Origin: a phage
Length of the DNA stretch: 64,000 bases
Sequence record: PZ179883.1
Direction: 5' to 3' (one strand)
Below, one piece after another: positions 4,420 through 48,087 of the stretch (the first letter of the stretch is position 1; every line of letters starts with the position of its first letter). Made by a program: the position numbers and the translations under genes. The notes beneath the pieces were generated by a model. That model saw nothing but the letters and a program-made list of their open reading frames with translations. It was not told where the DNA came from and did no database searches.

Positions 4420-5055
4420 TCACAGTTCAGATGCTACAGTGATTACAGCTTCAATGTTTTCTGCCGAGCGTTTAATGTCAAGATACACATTACCGTTTTT
4501 AGCGATTTTACATGACATTCCGATGTCAGTAAATTTCTGAATATGATGTTCCATCATTTTGTATCCAAAAATTCGCATATTTCCATTGTTGTTAATTTCA
4601 AAATTACGAATTCCGTGAGTGCGTTTTTCTAAAATAGCGAGATAGTTACTGCGGTAAGTTTCAACCTTTTTAAGAACAAATCCATTTTCATCTAAAAGTT
4701 TTAACATGAAGTCTTTATCTTCTTCCATATCAGAAGTAATTTCGCGAGCTTTACGAGTTGCTCGTTTTTTCAGCAGTTCCGGAGCGTTTTCCTGTGCGTA
4801 TAAAGTTGCTGCATTTGAAATAATATCCTGAGCTTCACCAGTAATGATTAATCCATCACCAGATTTCTCCACCAGGCCTTTTTTAATCAATACCCCAATA
4901 TTACTATTAACTACTGCATTACCTAAATCTGGATGCGCCTCACGAACTTCTGCAGCTGTAATGAAATCTTTCTTAGCAATGGTAATTAAAATCGCAGCAG
5001 TTTTTTCATTCAGAATATCGTTAGAAGCTTTGATGATGTAAGTTACTTTAGACAT
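4420..5055 (-). CDS. motA: MotA, middle-transcription activator (211 aa)
   Basis: Translation MSKVTYIIKASNDILNEKTAAILITIAKKDF... matches recalled T4 MotA, 211 aa. Confidence 0.95.
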   Translation of the reverse strand: MSKVTYIIKASNDILNEKTAAILITIAKKDFITAAEVREAHPDLGNAVVNSNIGVLIKKGLVEKSGDGLIITGEAQDIISNAATLYAQENAPELLKKRATRKAREITSDMEEDKDFMLKLLDENGFVLKKVETYRSNYLAILEKRTHGIRNFEINNNGNMRIFGYKMMEHHIQKFTDIGMSCKIAKNGNVYLDIKRSAENIEAVITVASEL

Positions 5056-26155: not shown

Positions 26156-26356
26156 TCATTTTGAATGCTCTATAATTAATTTTAAGGCTTCTTCATGCAC
26201 CTTACCTAATTGTATATGTCCAGTTTTAATTGTGTAAGCTTTGTGGAGCTGATTAGATAGGAGCTCGTATGTGAGCTCCTTGTCATAATTTTTAAATAGC
26301 TGGTCAATACGTTTCTTGTGGGCTTTCTTAAGTTGACGTTTATTTAAACGAGCCAT
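26156..26356 (-). CDS. Hypothetical basic protein (66 aa)
   Basis: ORF between 56 and soc. Confidence 0.5.
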   Translation of the reverse strand: MARLNKRQLKKAHKKRIDQLFKNYDKELTYELLSNQLHKAYTIKTGHIQLGKVHEEALKLIIEHSK

Positions 26357-26889
26357 TAATAACCTCGGTCTTGACGAGCGAAGTTTTCAGCATTTTTCAG
26401 ATAATAAAGTTTAAAGATTTCTTCAGCCGTAAGACCGAGACCTTGGAACATGTTCAGAACGAAATGAAGAATATCAATCATTTCGAATTTAATTTCCAAC
26501 TGGTCTTGTGGAGACAAATCAGTAATCAGAGTTTCACGACGTTCACCATGCTGCGACTTCCAAGGCTTCCATACAGCAGATGCATCTTTTTCACCATTGC
26601 TCATACCACCAAGAGAAGTCAGAAGTTCACGGAATTCATCATCAATGTAATCTTTCTGATTACGCAGCCAATCAACAACTTCACCCGCAGTAGCCAAATC
26701 ATCAGGATGACGGTTATATTCAGGTTTATCTTTAGCTAAACGAACCTGTAGAGATTTCTGCATATCAAGCATAACCTGCAGCGGGTCTTTTTCATCACCG
26801 AGAATATCCCAGTATTCATTTTGAGCTTTATCAGCGCCTTCGATCAGTTGACTACATTCGTTAAAGTAAGCCATTATTTTTCCTTTCAA
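26356..26889 (-). CDS. 56: dCTPase/dUTPase gp56 (MazG-like NTP pyrophosphatase), 177 aa
   Basis: Position between dam and soc and size match T4 gene 56; identity not verified. Confidence 0.75.
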   Translation of the reverse strand: MKGKIMAYFNECSQLIEGADKAQNEYWDILGDEKDPLQVMLDMQKSLQVRLAKDKPEYNRHPDDLATAGEVVDWLRNQKDYIDDEFRELLTSLGGMSNGEKDASAVWKPWKSQHGERRETLITDLSPQDQLEIKFEMIDILHFVLNMFQGLGLTAEEIFKLYYLKNAENFARQDRGY

Positions 26890-26934: not shown

Positions 26935-28274
<1,340 letters not shown>

Positions 28275-32426: not shown

Positions 32427-32789
32427 TTAAAAGAATTTAAATTTTTTCTTTGACCTTTTATTAAATGCATCTTGTAGTTGCATTGTAATACATTTTTCTA
32501 CATGAGGAGCTAACTCAGCTTTTCTTTCTTGGTCAAGAACAGCAAAGTCCATTACGACTTTTCCATCAACCCAATCTAATTTTGTCACATACACAATGTG
32601 TGTAGAACCATCTTCTAGTTTAATGACAATCTCCTGGATAACATTTTCCATGGCAGATTTAATTATCTTAAGAGATTCATTAAAAAGACGTTCTTTTCTT
32701 TCTTCTTCCCCCTCCGAAGAGGGGGATTCGTCAATAATTTCTAGATCTAAATCTAAATCATCTTTATTCATTAAATTCTTCCATATCAC
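32427..32789 (-). CDS. 40: gp40 head-assembly membrane protein (120 aa)
   Basis: Position between uvsX and 41 as in T4; start overlaps uvsX 3' end. Confidence 0.7.
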   Translation of the reverse strand: MIWKNLMNKDDLDLDLEIIDESPSSEGEEERKERLFNESLKIIKSAMENVIQEIVIKLEDGSTHIVYVTKLDWVDGKVVMDFAVLDQERKAELAPHVEKCITMQLQDAFNKRSKKKFKFF

Positions 32790-33945
32790 TTAACTGATCT
32801 AGGTCAGTTTCTAAATCAGCAGCTGATTTACTTTTACTTTCTGGGGATTTAAATTTTTCAACCTTTGAGTTAATTAATTCATCAACTTCAGCTTCAACAA
32901 TTTCATTACTATCAATAGCGCCTAATTGATAAGCACGTTTAATAGCATCCCGGAATGGTTGATGCTTAAATAAAGGACCCCAAAATGTAGTGCAATTGGT
33001 ATCTTTTGCACGCCAAGATTTTTCTTCGCGAATCATCTCGCCGGTTTCTTCATCAAGAAATTCACGAGCATACCAGCCATTTTTAGGTTTTACTACAAAT
33101 CCTAATTCAAGGGCCATATCTAATAATCCAGAATAAGGATCGATGCCACCATCAAATTTAACATCAATAAAGAATTTACTTTTTTCTTTGACGGTACGAG
33201 ATTTTTCTACATTTAGAACAAATTGATACCCCTGAAGATCAGAACCATCTTTAATCTGACGTTTACCGATAATGAATACAGTATCAGCCGAATACATTAC
33301 GCCTGTACCACCTGTCATCACGGTTTTACTAAACATTTCAATTGTTTCAATTGTATGGTTAACCGCAACACACGGAATGTTTTTAATACTAAAATAAGGA
33401 GTAACAATACGGAATAATGACTTCAGTGATTTAGCACGAGTCATATCTGCCACAGATTTTTCATTCAAGGCATCTTCCGTTTCTTTCTTAGAAGCCATAT
33501 TACCAATTGAGTCGATGAATACAATAACTTTTTCACCGCGCTCAATAGCTTCAAGCTGATTCACCATATCAATTTTCAGCTGTTCAACTGACTGGATTGG
33601 TGTATGAATTACTCGTTCCGGGTCAACTCCCATGGATCGCAAATAAGCTGGAGTGATACCAAATTCGCTATCATAAAATAGACAAACCGCATCAGGATAT
33701 TTGTTCAAATATGCCGCAACCATAGTCAAAGACATATTTGATTTAAAGTGTTTAGAAGGACCTGCGAAAATAGTTAAACCAGACTGCATACCGCCATCAA
33801 TCGCACCGGAAATAGCGATATTAAGCATTGGGATTTTTGTACGGATTACATCCTTTTCATTAAAGAACTTAGATGTAGTCAGTTCAGCAGTCATTTTAGA
33901 AGTGGAAGCTTTAATCAAACGGGATTTTAAATCTGCAATAGACAT
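32764..33945 (-). CDS. uvsX: UvsX recombinase (RecA-like), 393 aa
   Basis: Walker A GPSKHFKS; RecA fold motifs; matches recalled T4 UvsX. Confidence 0.95.
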   Translation of the reverse strand: MSIADLKSRLIKASTSKMTAELTTSKFFNEKDVIRTKIPMLNIAISGAIDGGMQSGLTIFAGPSKHFKSNMSLTMVAAYLNKYPDAVCLFYDSEFGITPAYLRSMGVDPERVIHTPIQSVEQLKIDMVNQLEAIERGEKVIVFIDSIGNMASKKETEDALNEKSVADMTRAKSLKSLFRIVTPYFSIKNIPCVAVNHTIETIEMFSKTVMTGGTGVMYSADTVFIIGKRQIKDGSDLQGYQFVLNVEKSRTVKEKSKFFIDVKFDGGIDPYSGLLDMALELGFVVKPKNGWYAREFLDEETGEMIREEKSWRAKDTNCTTFWGPLFKHQPFRDAIKRAYQLGAIDSNEIVEAEVDELINSKVEKFKSPESKSKSAADLETDLDQLSDMEEFNE

Positions 33946-34022
33946 TCATTTTTTCCATAGGCATCATTATATTTTCCTCACTGGTTAAAGATAGAATAAT
34001 TATAACACAATAAATTTAGGCA

Positions 34023-34865
34023 TTAATCAACTGCTATTGGATGAATAGCATTAAACTTATGAAATGCTTCTGATTTTTCTTTACGCGAAACACACATGCG
34101 AAGAACCTTTAATGGCTCGTCTTCTTCACCCAACGATTTTCGTTTTTCAATATTCGATGTTTTCCAACGAGCTTGCTCTGGAAACTCTCTATTGATTTGC
34201 TCAAGCGCTCTATTATGTTTAGAATTACTACGAATTGAACTACATCCACCGGGAGCGTGTGATTTTCCAGATACAACTAGATATTTGAACAAGGCCAAAT
34301 GCGGATAACCTTGATTAATTAAATTGAGAAATGCATACATATCTTCGCATAAATCAATTTTTCCATACCCAATTTGTTCTGTCGTAAGTTTTCCGAGGTC
34401 ATACCATGTATTCGTGAATCCATATGAGTTTTCACGATAATTACCCCAAGATGAAGTAATTTTAAAAATTGGTAGACGAGCATGACCGTGATAATACCCG
34501 CAATCCATGGCATCTTCAACATATTGAATCAATTCATAGAACTGTTCACGAGTTAATTGATTAATTTTATCTACACGCCGTTTATCGTCTCTCTTTCGTA
34601 TTGAACTCATACGAATAGTAGTATCATCATCAATCATCCAGATTCGTTGACCTGCATACATATCAGTAATTGCTTTACGAGTACCAGCAATTCCATTAAC
34701 ATCATCAGGAATAGTTATAATTTTAGCTCTAGACCCATAAGCGTCATAATAAGCTTTTTCTTCGTGTTTACGTACTACAATATGAGGTTCATAATCAGTT
34801 GGAAACATATCAAGGGCAGAAACTGCCCCTACACGCTGATAACTTGGAATTACGAATTGAATCAT
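34023..34865 (-). CDS. Glycosyltransferase (280 aa), candidate T2/T6-type beta-glucosyl-HMC-alpha-glucosyltransferase
   Basis: Occupies the T4 bgt locus between uvsX and 42 but is not T4 beta-gt (351 aa); DxD-like motif IWMIDDDTTI. Confidence 0.55.
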   Translation of the reverse strand: MIQFVIPSYQRVGAVSALDMFPTDYEPHIVVRKHEEKAYYDAYGSRAKIITIPDDVNGIAGTRKAITDMYAGQRIWMIDDDTTIRMSSIRKRDDKRRVDKINQLTREQFYELIQYVEDAMDCGYYHGHARLPIFKITSSWGNYRENSYGFTNTWYDLGKLTTEQIGYGKIDLCEDMYAFLNLINQGYPHLALFKYLVVSGKSHAPGGCSSIRSNSKHNRALEQINREFPEQARWKTSNIEKRKSLGEEDEPLKVLRMCVSRKEKSEAFHKFNAIHPIAVD

Positions 34866-35503
34866 TTAAGTGCCTTACATTTGTCAAAATGGTATCTTGT
34901 CATATTTGGCCCACGTCCTTTTAGTCCGCAATGCGGACATATTTTTTCTATCAAATTATGAGGTTTTCCTTTACGATTTTTAGACATCGTTTCTTTAATT
35001 ATTTTAGCTTTTTCTACGCCAAAAATTTCTTCATAAGTTTTACCAGAATTTTCCTTGGCTCGATTTATAATTCCATATGCCTGCTCATTTTTACCATACA
35101 TTGGATTACCTTCGCCTTTCATTCTTTTAGAATGATCAGGACGCTTGATTCCACGAAAGGCATTTCCGCACTTATATCTTTCTTCTGGAGATAGTTTTTT
35201 ACCGTACATTCCATTTAATTTGCCTGGAAAACTTCCTCCCCATGCTTCATTCTTTAAATTATATGAATCCGGACAATTAGCAGCATCTAAACAAGTTAAA
35301 ATAATTTCTTCAACCTGTCTAAACATTGGTCCTTCATATAATATTTCTTTATTAAAGGATTTTATTCCATATTTCTTTTTAGCATGTTGCCAAACTACAC
35401 CCGAACCATCATAATTCGGGTTGTGACCATCATGACTTCCTATATACCACTTTTTAGTTTTAGGATGTTTATACTTATAAACATGTGGCACATTTACTTC
35501 CAT
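34862..35503 (-). CDS. GIY-YIG homing endonuclease, Seg-like (213 aa)
   Basis: N-terminal GIY-YIG motif (HVYKYKHPKTKKWYIGSHDG) and NUMOD3-like repeats (GKK…PEER, SKRMKGEGNPMYGK); ATGA overlaps with both neighbours. Confidence 0.7.
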   Translation of the reverse strand: MEVNVPHVYKYKHPKTKKWYIGSHDGHNPNYDGSGVVWQHAKKKYGIKSFNKEILYEGPMFRQVEEIILTCLDAANCPDSYNLKNEAWGGSFPGKLNGMYGKKLSPEERYKCGNAFRGIKRPDHSKRMKGEGNPMYGKNEQAYGIINRAKENSGKTYEEIFGVEKAKIIKETMSKNRKGKPHNLIEKICPHCGLKGRGPNMTRYHFDKCKALK

Positions 35504-36234
35504 TTTCCAGTATAATCCTTTTTAGCAATATGAGTCTCACCGGTGTTCCACCAATGGTCAACTAAATAAAACTGATTTTCGTACACATGAAGACTTCCAA
35601 CGTTCCATATAATAGAACCTGCTTTATATTGCCGCGATGGGTCGCCTGCATTCAAATCAGATACTAATTTATCTAGTACGTATTTTTGCCAAGCATAATC
35701 ATTACGATAGCCTGCCCAGCAATCATTGCTTCTCATGCTAACAACCGCATTGACTTTCTTATCACGAATCAGGTACTGTACTGTATTCGTACACATGAAA
35801 TCTGACATACCATCTTTATTGTAGTCAAACTGCATAGATGGACGAGTATAAATCATGATACCACGTCGAGAATCAGGATTTTGACCAAGTTCAGCTAAAC
35901 ACATATCATACTGGGCATAGTTATCTTCTGACCAGATGGCCCAACCATAATTCGAGTTAATTTCGCCTTTAGAAGATGCTACCTGCTGCCAAATCTTTGG
36001 TGTTTCACCTGGAATATCTTTAACAAACAAACTTTGAGACTTATACCATTCAAGTTCACGCTGAATGTATTCATCATTAAGAGCGCCAAAAATAAACGGT
36101 TCATCTGCTACAAATGATGCGCCAATAATTTCAATAGTTTTAACGCCAGTTTTATCAACTACGAAATCTTTTTCTTTTAATGCAAGCCCCAAATGAAGAC
36201 GGATTTCTTCAACTGTCATAGAGTCACTAATCAT
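35494..36234 (-). CDS. 42: dCMP hydroxymethylase gp42 (246 aa)
   Basis: Thymidylate-synthase-like fold motifs; 246 aa; matches recalled T4 gp42. Confidence 0.95.
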   Translation of the reverse strand: MISDSMTVEEIRLHLGLALKEKDFVVDKTGVKTIEIIGASFVADEPFIFGALNDEYIQRELEWYKSQSLFVKDIPGETPKIWQQVASSKGEINSNYGWAIWSEDNYAQYDMCLAELGQNPDSRRGIMIYTRPSMQFDYNKDGMSDFMCTNTVQYLIRDKKVNAVVSMRSNDCWAGYRNDYAWQKYVLDKLVSDLNAGDPSRQYKAGSIIWNVGSLHVYENQFYLVDHWWNTGETHIAKKDYTGKWK

Positions 36235-36387
36235 TTAAACCTCAATTGATACATTCATATTTAACTTGTAACAGTAATAAACCCCAACCTAAAATAATAG
36301 TTGGAATCATAAGAGGAACCGTTACACTATAGTATATACTTATTATAATCATCAAGATTAAAAGCAACACTGCTATAATTTTGCTTT

Positions 36388-36639
36388 TCATTCCTTCTCT
36401 CTGATGATAATTACTTGATTTGGCTGTGCAGACTTTTTAGTTTCACCAGCAATTGACCAAATAAATGTAATAAACCAACCAATGATTGACCAGTTAAACA
36501 GTAAAGATGTAAAAAAGATTCCTACTGTCGATTTTGACCCACGCATCAAGGCAATGAACCAAGGAAGCATGTATATAATAATAGCCAACACACCTGAAAC
36601 TAAAACCATAAAAATTGAACCTGCTACTAAAGTTTCCAT
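36388..36639 (-). CDS. imm: Immunity (superinfection exclusion) protein Imm (83 aa)
   Basis: 83 aa two-TM membrane protein at the T4 imm position. Confidence 0.85.
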   Translation of the reverse strand: METLVAGSIFMVLVSGVLAIIIYMLPWFIALMRGSKSTVGIFFTSLLFNWSIIGWFITFIWSIAGETKKSAQPNQVIIIREKE

Positions 36640-46868: not shown

Positions 46869-46886
46869 AAAGGGCCGAAGCCCTTT
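46869..46886 (-). other. Tetraloop hairpin AAAGGGC-CGAA-GCCCTTT at the 3' end of alpha-gt
   Basis: Perfect stem with CGAA loop overlapping the agt stop. Confidence 0.45.
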
Positions 46887-48087
46887 ATTTTGTAATAATG
46901 TCAAACTGTTCTTTAAAGCAGAAGCTTGAATCTTGGTGCTGATACAAAAATTCATAAGCTTTTTCACGTTCGCGGTCATAAAGAGCTCGGTCAGATGACA
47001 GTTCTTTAATACGTTCAAATGTTGATTCCATGTCATTTTCATCAAACCAAACGATACCGCTATCATGAGAAATTAATGGAGTATTATCAACACGGAATTT
47101 TAAATTTTCGCCCGTAGATTTCCAAAATACCGGAATTGTTCCACATGCACCAAGCTCGAGATGAGTGTATTCTAAAGAACGCTGTAGATATTTTTTGTCC
47201 AACTTACTCAGCTGATAACCAAATCCGGATTTACTCATGCGTTCAAGCATTTCGCTATTTACATAACGGTCAAGAATTTGCGTTGGCAAATTAGGAGCAA
47301 TTTTAATTTGGTCTACTTGATGAAGACGATAATACTCGTATGGAATTCCTTTTTCTTTAATAGGAATGAACGCTGGAGAACGTTCCAGACCTTCCATAAT
47401 AGTACTTAGTCCTGCAGGTTTAAGATGTTTTTCATGAAAATCAAACATCTGATAAAAGCCTTTCCATGTAGTCGTACGACCAATCCAACGGTTGATATTC
47501 ATGTTAATTTCAGAAACATCTTTCCAGTAGGTTGACCGAACCTTCGCAATATCCATAGGAGGCTGAAAGTTATATACGGTCGGCGCTTCTTCAATATCAT
47601 CAAACAGAGAAACTGTTTCTGGATACCATTCTTTCATCAAAACTTTATTAAAGTCACCATTATCAGAATGGCTAAAAATAACATCAGCTCGACGAACAGT
47701 TTCTTCTAATCCCAAATTTCGGCGCAAAGAAAGAGAAGAATGGTCATGTTGATAAACTACAACACGAACCGAAGGTTTAATGTTATCAATAATTTTTTTA
47801 TAGTTATTAATAGTGTCTTCTTCAACCGAAGTAGCAGGAACTGAATTGATAATTAGAATATCACAATCATTTACCAGCTTAAGTGTTTTATCGTATTCTT
47901 TTGCCAATAAAACCGGAATTGAAAATGATTTATAATCATGCGCACAATTACGAGTAAATGATTTATCTTTAGCATAAACCAAAGTTACTTCATGACCATT
48001 TTTAATAAACCAATCACGCTGCTCAAGAGAAAATTTAGTTACACCGCAACCTTCAAGACCTCGAGCCATAAAAATACATACTTTCAT
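46885..48087 (-). CDS. agt: DNA alpha-glucosyltransferase (400 aa)
   Basis: Translation MKVCIFMARGLEGCGVTKFSLEQRDWFIKNGHEVTLVYAKDKSFTR… matches recalled T4 alpha-gt; 400 aa. Confidence 0.92.
   Translation of the reverse strand: MKVCIFMARGLEGCGVTKFSLEQRDWFIKNGHEVTLVYAKDKSFTRNCAHDYKSFSIPVLLAKEYDKTLKLVNDCDILIINSVPATSVEEDTINNYKKIIDNIKPSVRVVVYQHDHSSLSLRRNLGLEETVRRADVIFSHSDNGDFNKVLMKEWYPETVSLFDDIEEAPTVYNFQPPMDIAKVRSTYWKDVSEINMNINRWIGRTTTWKGFYQMFDFHEKHLKPAGLSTIMEGLERSPAFIPIKEKGIPYEYYRLHQVDQIKIAPNLPTQILDRYVNSEMLERMSKSGFGYQLSKLDKKYLQRSLEYTHLELGACGTIPVFWKSTGENLKFRVDNTPLISHDSGIVWFDENDMESTFERIKELSSDRALYDREREKAYEFLYQHQDSSFCFKEQFDIITK

Follow-up and report, generated by a model that had tools for sequence, protein, structure and literature searches.

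A probable T2/T6-type beta-glucosyl-HMC-alpha-glucosyltransferase gene at the beta-gt locus of a T4-like phage

Which glycosyltransferase stands between uvsX and gene 42 of a T4-like phage, and what does it add to the phage DNA? This question was raised by a stretch of phage DNA of 64,000 nucleotides (nt) (sequence record PZ179883.1), referred to as a whole as the window. In T4, the syntenic interval contains segA and b-gt, the latter encoding a beta-glucosyltransferase of 351 amino acids (aa), in line with what an earlier note on the window had stated about the T4 locus. In the window, the position between uvsX and gene 42 is taken by an intact, ATG-started open reading frame (ORF) of 280 aa, at 34023..34865 on the minus strand, and residues 75-84 of its product read IWMIDDDTTI, so that both the length and the motif given in the earlier note were correct. 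We conclude, with a probability of about 0.93, that this ORF encodes a T2/T6-type beta-glucosyl-HMC-alpha-glucosyltransferase (HMC, hydroxymethylcytosine; also written hmC or 5hmC), a small GT-A-fold enzyme of the TAGT family, which groups next to GT2. The gene is variously called ba-gt, g-gt or TAGT.

The family assignment was obtained by profile matches and by direct alignment. The 280-aa protein scored 39.4 bits with the Pfam family PF20691 (TAGT, TET-associated glycosyltransferase), above its curated gathering cut-off of 27.5 bits, and the match joined residues 3-207 to positions 2-205 of the 205-position profile, thus spanning the full profile. It also matched PHROG 842, "beta-glucosyl-HMC-alpha-glucosyltransferase", at 1.5e-87, with residues 1-275 covered. 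Full-length alignment gave 97% identity to the T2 ggt product, ungapped, and 96% identity to the T6 ggt product (AP018814) with one 1-residue gap, which supports the previous proposal of a T2/T6 arrangement with a beta-glucosyl-HMC-alpha-glucosyltransferase at this locus. The gene was present at at least 90% DNA identity in 480 phage records, many of them annotated under the same enzyme name, from Tequatroviruses of Escherichia, Shigella, Yersinia, Salmonella and Citrobacter. The block from uvsX to imm was collinear in 473 records, and the order uvsX, glycosyltransferase, gene 42 was also seen in T2, T6 and phages of the Durham Collection. The exact 280-aa sequence is already found on 14 public contigs. 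NCBIfam held no model for the protein, and a PDB sequence search with it returned chance matches only (E > 1), with no solved structure of the family reachable by sequence. Membership in the T2/T6 ba-gt family was borne out by every test available here, and membership in the T4 beta-gt family was not.

Homology of the 280-aa protein to the T4 beta-glucosyltransferase (GT63, PF09198, PDB 1JG7) was rejected, as the best BLASTP alignment had E = 3.9. The alignment check proposed in the earlier note thus found no detectable similarity to T4 beta-gt, and a tblastn search with T4 beta-gt found no such gene anywhere in the 64-kb window. PF09198 was not matched by the 280-aa protein, versus 325 bits for T4 b-gt, and no 1JG7-type chain was matched in a PDB sequence search at E up to 10. 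The two enzymes are alike in their genomic slot, in their inverting outcome (a beta linkage) and in a chemistry on glucosylated-HMC DNA, and UDP-glucose is the donor for both. They differ in Pfam family, in acceptor, which is free HMC for T4 beta-gt and alpha-glucosyl-HMC for the T2/T6-type enzyme, and in fold, which is GT-B for the former and GT-A for the latter (PMC13216743). The label "Non-T4" that had been given to the gene overstates rarity, since most Tequatroviruses have alpha-gt together with TAGT, and it is the alpha-gt and beta-gt pair of T4 that is rare (PMC13216743). The arrangement is ordinary, not unusual, among T4-like phages; the gene and its genomic position are already known, and its annotation is routine and no discovery.

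The fold was predicted from a shallow alignment of 10 sequences, a large protein database having yielded 11 homologues only, and the structure model of the 280-aa protein is only moderately confident. The predicted fold is GT-A, with a single Rossmann-like nucleotide-diphospho-sugar transferase domain, and not the two-domain GT-B. This agrees with the published description of T6 TAGT as GT-A, sister to GT2, so that the choice between GT-A and GT-B posed by the earlier note was already answered in print and is reproduced by our model (PMC13216743). Codons D79-D80-D81 (34623..34631, minus strand; atcatcatc on the plus strand, GATGATGAT on the coding strand) form the DxD-type motif of a GT-A enzyme. 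All three aspartates are invariant in the 10-sequence alignment, which reaches down to 31% identity, and so are D175 and G206/G207/S209/R212. The motif follows model strand E74-77, with the DxD after the fourth beta-strand. By analogy with GT-A enzymes in general, D79-D81 would hold a divalent metal and the diphosphate of UDP-glucose. In GT2 enzymes, the catalytic base follows the DxD by about 95 residues, a spacing matched by E174/D175, and this invariant pair likely provides the catalytic base. Contacts with the glucosylated DNA are predicted, as likely, for the basic hairpin 85-101 and the loop 194-212.

In its score above threshold, its GT-A fold and its DxD motif, the window protein resembles the PF20691 TAGT/GT-A family, sister to CAZy GT2. 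It departs from that family in two respects: the T-even hydroxymethyl group is made on the nucleotide by gp42 and not on DNA by a TET/JBP dioxygenase, and the glucose is accepted by a sugar that the base already bears and not by a hydroxymethyl base. T-even HMC derives from gp42, and an association with TET/JBP is thus neither expected nor needed for membership in the Pfam family.

The identity, family, fold, motif conservation, synteny and pathway genes were determined here, and the chemistry and defence phenotypes come from the literature on orthologues. T2 and T6 are without beta-gt; their alpha-glucosyl-5hmC receives a beta-linked glucose from a second transferase and so becomes gentiobiosyl-5hmC, which occupies about 5% of sites in T2 and 72% in T6 (bioRxiv 10.64898/2026.02.25.707755; PMC13216743). 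T6 delta-ba-gt contains only alpha-glucosyl-hmC instead of gentiobiosyl-hmC, and its sensitivity to the Brig1 glycosylase is increased (PMC11078745). BapA frees glucose from T6 delta-g-gt DNA and not from wild-type T6 DNA (bioRxiv 10.64898/2026.02.25.707755), and the gentiobiosyl form is still targeted by GmrSD-type enzymes (PMC13216743). For the window phage, gp42 would supply hydroxymethyl-dCMP (hm-dCMP), with HMC built in during replication, and alpha-gt (46885..48087) would then put glucose from UDP-glucose on about three-quarters of the HMC in alpha linkage. The 280-aa enzyme would add a second glucose from UDP-alpha-D-glucose to O6 of the first, with inversion, so that a beta-1,6 linkage forms and alpha-gentiobiosyl-HMC results; GT2-like inverting chemistry would account for the formation of this linkage from UDP-alpha-glucose. 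The sensitivity profile of the phage would shift as a consequence, as gentiobiosyl-HMC would withstand Brig1 and BapA, which act on alpha-glucosyl-HMC, and would still be targeted by type IV enzymes of the GmrSD/BrxU type. The gene would thus decide whether alpha-glucosyl-HMC receives a second-glucose cap, and deletions of the T6 orthologue changed the susceptibility to such sugar-reading defences (Brig1, BapA, GmrSD/BrxU).

A closer proxy is provided by ten Tequatroviruses of the Durham Collection with TAGT at this locus, whose nucleosides were measured by high-performance liquid chromatography and mass spectrometry (HPLC/MS) and included alpha-5-gentiobiosylmethyl-dC (PMC13390438). In Geo, BGP and EL, the ratio of 5-hydroxymethyl-dC (5-hmdC) to its alpha-glucosyl and alpha-gentiobiosyl forms was about 1:2:2 (PMC13390438). 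The proteins of these three phages and that of the window share 99% identity, with differences only at K33/E and I50/V, and the window gene differs from the genes of the three at 23-24 nucleotides, mostly synonymous; the 24 differences from Geo indicate that the window phage is not the same phage as Geo. The window also carries dam and an adjacent 186-aa ORF, the genes that set apart Geo, EL and BGP according to the Durham authors (PMC13390438). By proxy from the 99%-identical Geo, BGP and EL proteins and from the T6 deletions, it is highly probable that the window protein converts alpha-glucosyl-HMC to gentiobiosyl-HMC. The protein identity, a six-residue haplotype in common with Geo, BGP and EL, and the dam and 186-aa genes make the mixed pattern the best empirical prediction, and the DNA of this phage probably contains hmC, alpha-glucosyl-hmC and alpha-gentiobiosyl-hmC in a mixture like that of Geo. 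The practical value of the assignment lies in this predicted phenotype, namely DNA with gentiobiosyl-HMC that is probably mixed with mono-alpha-glucosyl-HMC. The earlier statement that the sugar and the linkage cannot be read from the sequence was too cautious, given the alpha-5-gentiobiosylmethyl-dC in phages with 99%-identical proteins and the T6 deletion data; the part that is not readable from the sequence is the fraction of sites given a second glucose.

Since the gene occupies the T4 b-gt locus, and since GT2-like GT-A enzymes are typically inverting and would produce a beta linkage on HMC too, the protein could be imagined as a functional substitute for T4 beta-gt that places a first glucose directly on HMC left free by alpha-gt. 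We consider this very improbable. About 25-33% of the HMC stays unglucosylated in T2, T6 and Durham phages that have the gene (bioRxiv 10.64898/2026.02.25.707755; PMC13390438), beta-glucosyl-HMC was not detected in the Durham phages (PMC13390438), and in T6 deleted for the orthologue, about 75% alpha-glucosyl-hmC takes the place of gentiobiosyl-hmC (bioRxiv 10.64898/2026.02.25.707755; PMC11078745). Moreover, the window protein is 96-99% identical to the T2, T6 and Durham enzymes. There is a similarly slight chance that the six-residue haplotype alters donor or linkage specificity, such that the second sugar is something other than beta-1,6-glucose. The very same haplotype is present in Geo, BGP and EL, in which HPLC/MS identified the second modification as gentiobiose (PMC13390438), whereas the idea draws on the clustering of the six substitutions relative to T2/T6 in two loops close to the active-site motifs and on the distant TAGT homologues in phages of other chemistries (PMC13216743). 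In addition, each substitution is either conservative or at a position outside the invariant columns.

The least probable alternative, by a little, is that the gene has no activity, because the allele is decaying or because a seg-like insertion upstream silences it, and this would leave the DNA only mono-alpha-glucosylated. Loss in culture does occur, as the gene is damaged in both deposited T6 genomes, and a 642-bp gene is inserted between gene 42 and the glycosyltransferase in the window. However, the ORF is full length with all invariant residues intact, its ATG is preceded, 7 nt upstream, by an AAGG Shine-Dalgarno-like sequence, and the ATGA that it shares with the seg-like ORF points to coupled translation of the two. 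In 78 phage records the genes are arranged in the same way, and the 14 contigs with the exact protein are independent. A functional T2/T6-type enzyme that adds the second glucose is thus the preferred reading.

Such an enzyme (AYD82639.1 in T2, MH751506; BBF63468.1 in T6, AP018814) has 280 aa in T2/T6, as in the window, and is alike in its locus between uvsX and gene 42, in its partners alpha-gt and gene 42, in the DDD motif and in the invariant residues. Nine to eleven substitutions separate it from the window protein, among them the six of the haplotype that T2 and T6 lack. As a separate observation, the two deposited T6 genes depart from each other: in MH550421, codon 10 of the transferase (4951-4953 of the retrieved stretch) is TAG (amber) and the coding sequence is annotated from Met20, and in AP018814 (4135-4974 of the retrieved stretch) one Asp codon of the DDD motif is lost in frame, giving 279 aa. 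T6 being the reference for 72% gentiobiosylation, these two differing lesions mean either that laboratory stocks have drifted or that the enzyme tolerates changes.

The haplotype itself, I89 K95 R97 I101 S202 H203, is common to the window protein, Geo, BGP and EL, and the same six positions are M, R, C, V, A and Q in Solly, TB37, Some, CP, EH2, T2 and T6. Eight genes of the ten Durham phages were retrieved for this comparison, with QOTSP and NR1, of the seven group iv phages, left out. Four of the positions fall in the basic hairpin after the DxD (codons 89-101, 34563..34601, minus strand), with I89 K95 R97 I101 here and M, R, C, V in T2/T6; the other two, codons 202-203 (34257..34262, minus strand), encode S-H in the window and A-Q in T2/T6 and are closely followed by the invariant G206 G207 / S209 / R212. 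Among phage records, a 76-nt patch over codons 82-107 was bimodal, with 109 of window type (at least 90% identity) versus 366 of T2/T6 type (80-90%). Solly, TB37, Some, CP and EH2 have near-fully gentiobiosylated DNA (PMC13390438). We tentatively suggest that the I89 K95 R97 I101 S202 H203 allele (about 109/475 records) might encode a less efficient or differently site-selective transferase that determines the 1:2:2 mixed pattern of Geo, BGP and EL, to be contrasted, with the same reserve, with near-complete gentiobiosylation by the M-R-C-V-A-Q allele. The correlation of haplotype and phenotype involves 3 versus 5 phages, with their relatedness as a confounder, and T2 has the majority allele yet only 5% gentiobiosyl (bioRxiv 10.64898/2026.02.25.707755; PMC13216743), so that factors beyond the haplotype matter. 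In the published comparison of the two Durham groups, no difference other than the dam and restriction-enzyme-like genes is named (PMC13390438). The correlation of allele and phenotype is the sole element of this analysis for which no precedent was found in the cited literature. If true, the stoichiometry of T-even hypermodification, and hence the sensitivity to Brig1/BapA versus GmrSD-type defences, would be partly readable from the transferase gene. The hypothesis, which is cheap to test, is that the ratio of mono- to di-glucosyl forms is set by a common allele of the enzyme that differs in two patches.

The genes needed to make the acceptor were identified elsewhere in the window. Gene 42 (35494..36234, minus strand), the dCMP hydroxymethylase that supplies hm-dCMP, was recognized by PF00303 (thymidylate-synthase family, 54 bits) and by synteny, and it has the same length as, and is syntenic with, gene 42 of T4, T2 and T6. 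The DNA alpha-glucosyltransferase gene alpha-gt, which makes the alpha-glucosyl-HMC acceptor, is on the minus strand and was called T4-like in the earlier note; its product indeed matched PF11440 with 784 bits and is 91% identical to T4 a-gt, and it is 99.2-99.5% identical to alpha-gt of the Durham phages Some, CP and EH2. The window thus encodes, in alpha-gt and gene 42, the pathway that leads to the acceptor. The ORF at 26356..26889 (minus strand) is probably gene 56, by synteny and family; this dCTPase/dUTPase would exclude dCTP such that HMC replaces C. It matched PF08761 dUTPase_2 with 29.2 bits (cut-off 22.9), and in phage Geo the neighbour gene in the same order beside dam is annotated as dCTP pyrophosphatase. 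Downstream of the transferase gene lies uvsX (32764..33945, minus strand), with RecA and T4_UVSX_C domains. A scan of 33800-36500 for promoters and terminators gave counts no higher than in shuffled sequence. The sole coding-strand terminator-like hairpin (34811-34831) falls within codons 12-18, in conserved coding sequence, and no regulatory role is therefore claimed for it.

A detail absent from the earlier note is that a homing-endonuclease-like gene separates the glycosyltransferase from gene 42, with an ATGA start/stop overlap. In T2, the transferase gene abuts gene 42 itself through an ATGA overlap, whereas in the window a GIY-YIG seg-like gene lies between the two; Geo, BGP and EL, although alike in haplotype and, for Geo, in the dam and 186-aa restriction-enzyme-like gene pair, are likewise without it. 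This ORF (34862..35503, minus strand) encodes a 213-aa GIY-YIG seg-like homing endonuclease, with a PHROG 314 match at 2.3e-31 and 44% identity to the N-terminus of T4 SegA; matches to NUMOD3 and to a group I intron endonuclease model (TIGR01453) were both sub-threshold. It overlaps gene 42 by 10 nt on one side and the transferase gene by ATGA on the other. T2, T6, Geo and Solly lack the seg-like gene, which was found in 78 phage records only and is at least 99% identical in 71 of these, being more conserved than the flanking genes. In the 3' third of gene 42 (35494-35780, minus strand), up to 26% of positions in the last ~280 nt differ from phages that lack the seg-like gene, with 22, 8-12 and 24-25 differences per 93-nt bin relative to T2, T4, Geo and Solly and 0-10 elsewhere in the gene. 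This end of gene 42 is identical to that of the seg-carrying phage C2-3. Judged from the sequence, the diverged end looks like a homing co-conversion tract or a cleavage-resistant target travelling with the seg-like gene, which would be a typical signature.

Two further intervals were noted. The Dam-type methyltransferase gene (26935-27714, minus strand; PF02086, 174 bits) has a 1-nt overlap at its start with the 186-aa ORF (27714-28274, minus strand), which matches PHROG 8706, where no function is assigned. Nothing in the PDB matched the 186-aa ORF, nor did any NCBIfam model above noise. It matched DpnII with 16.8 bits (cut-off 23) and BanI restriction endonuclease, and its restriction-enzyme likeness comes solely from these sub-threshold Pfam matches. 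It is present in 147 phage records, Geo included, and in T4 nothing is annotated between dam and gene 61. It appears to be the "restriction enzyme-like gene" of the Durham study (PMC13390438), and together with dam it may form a phage-borne GATC restriction-modification-like pair. Finally, the interval between gene 42 and imm contains an ORF (36242-36391, minus strand) for a hydrophobic product of 49 aa, which corresponds to the Pfam family PF26865 Phage_T4_Y02C on a related contig; this 153-bp interval is unannotated in the T4, T2 and T6 records, and the ORF is annotated in the Durham phages.
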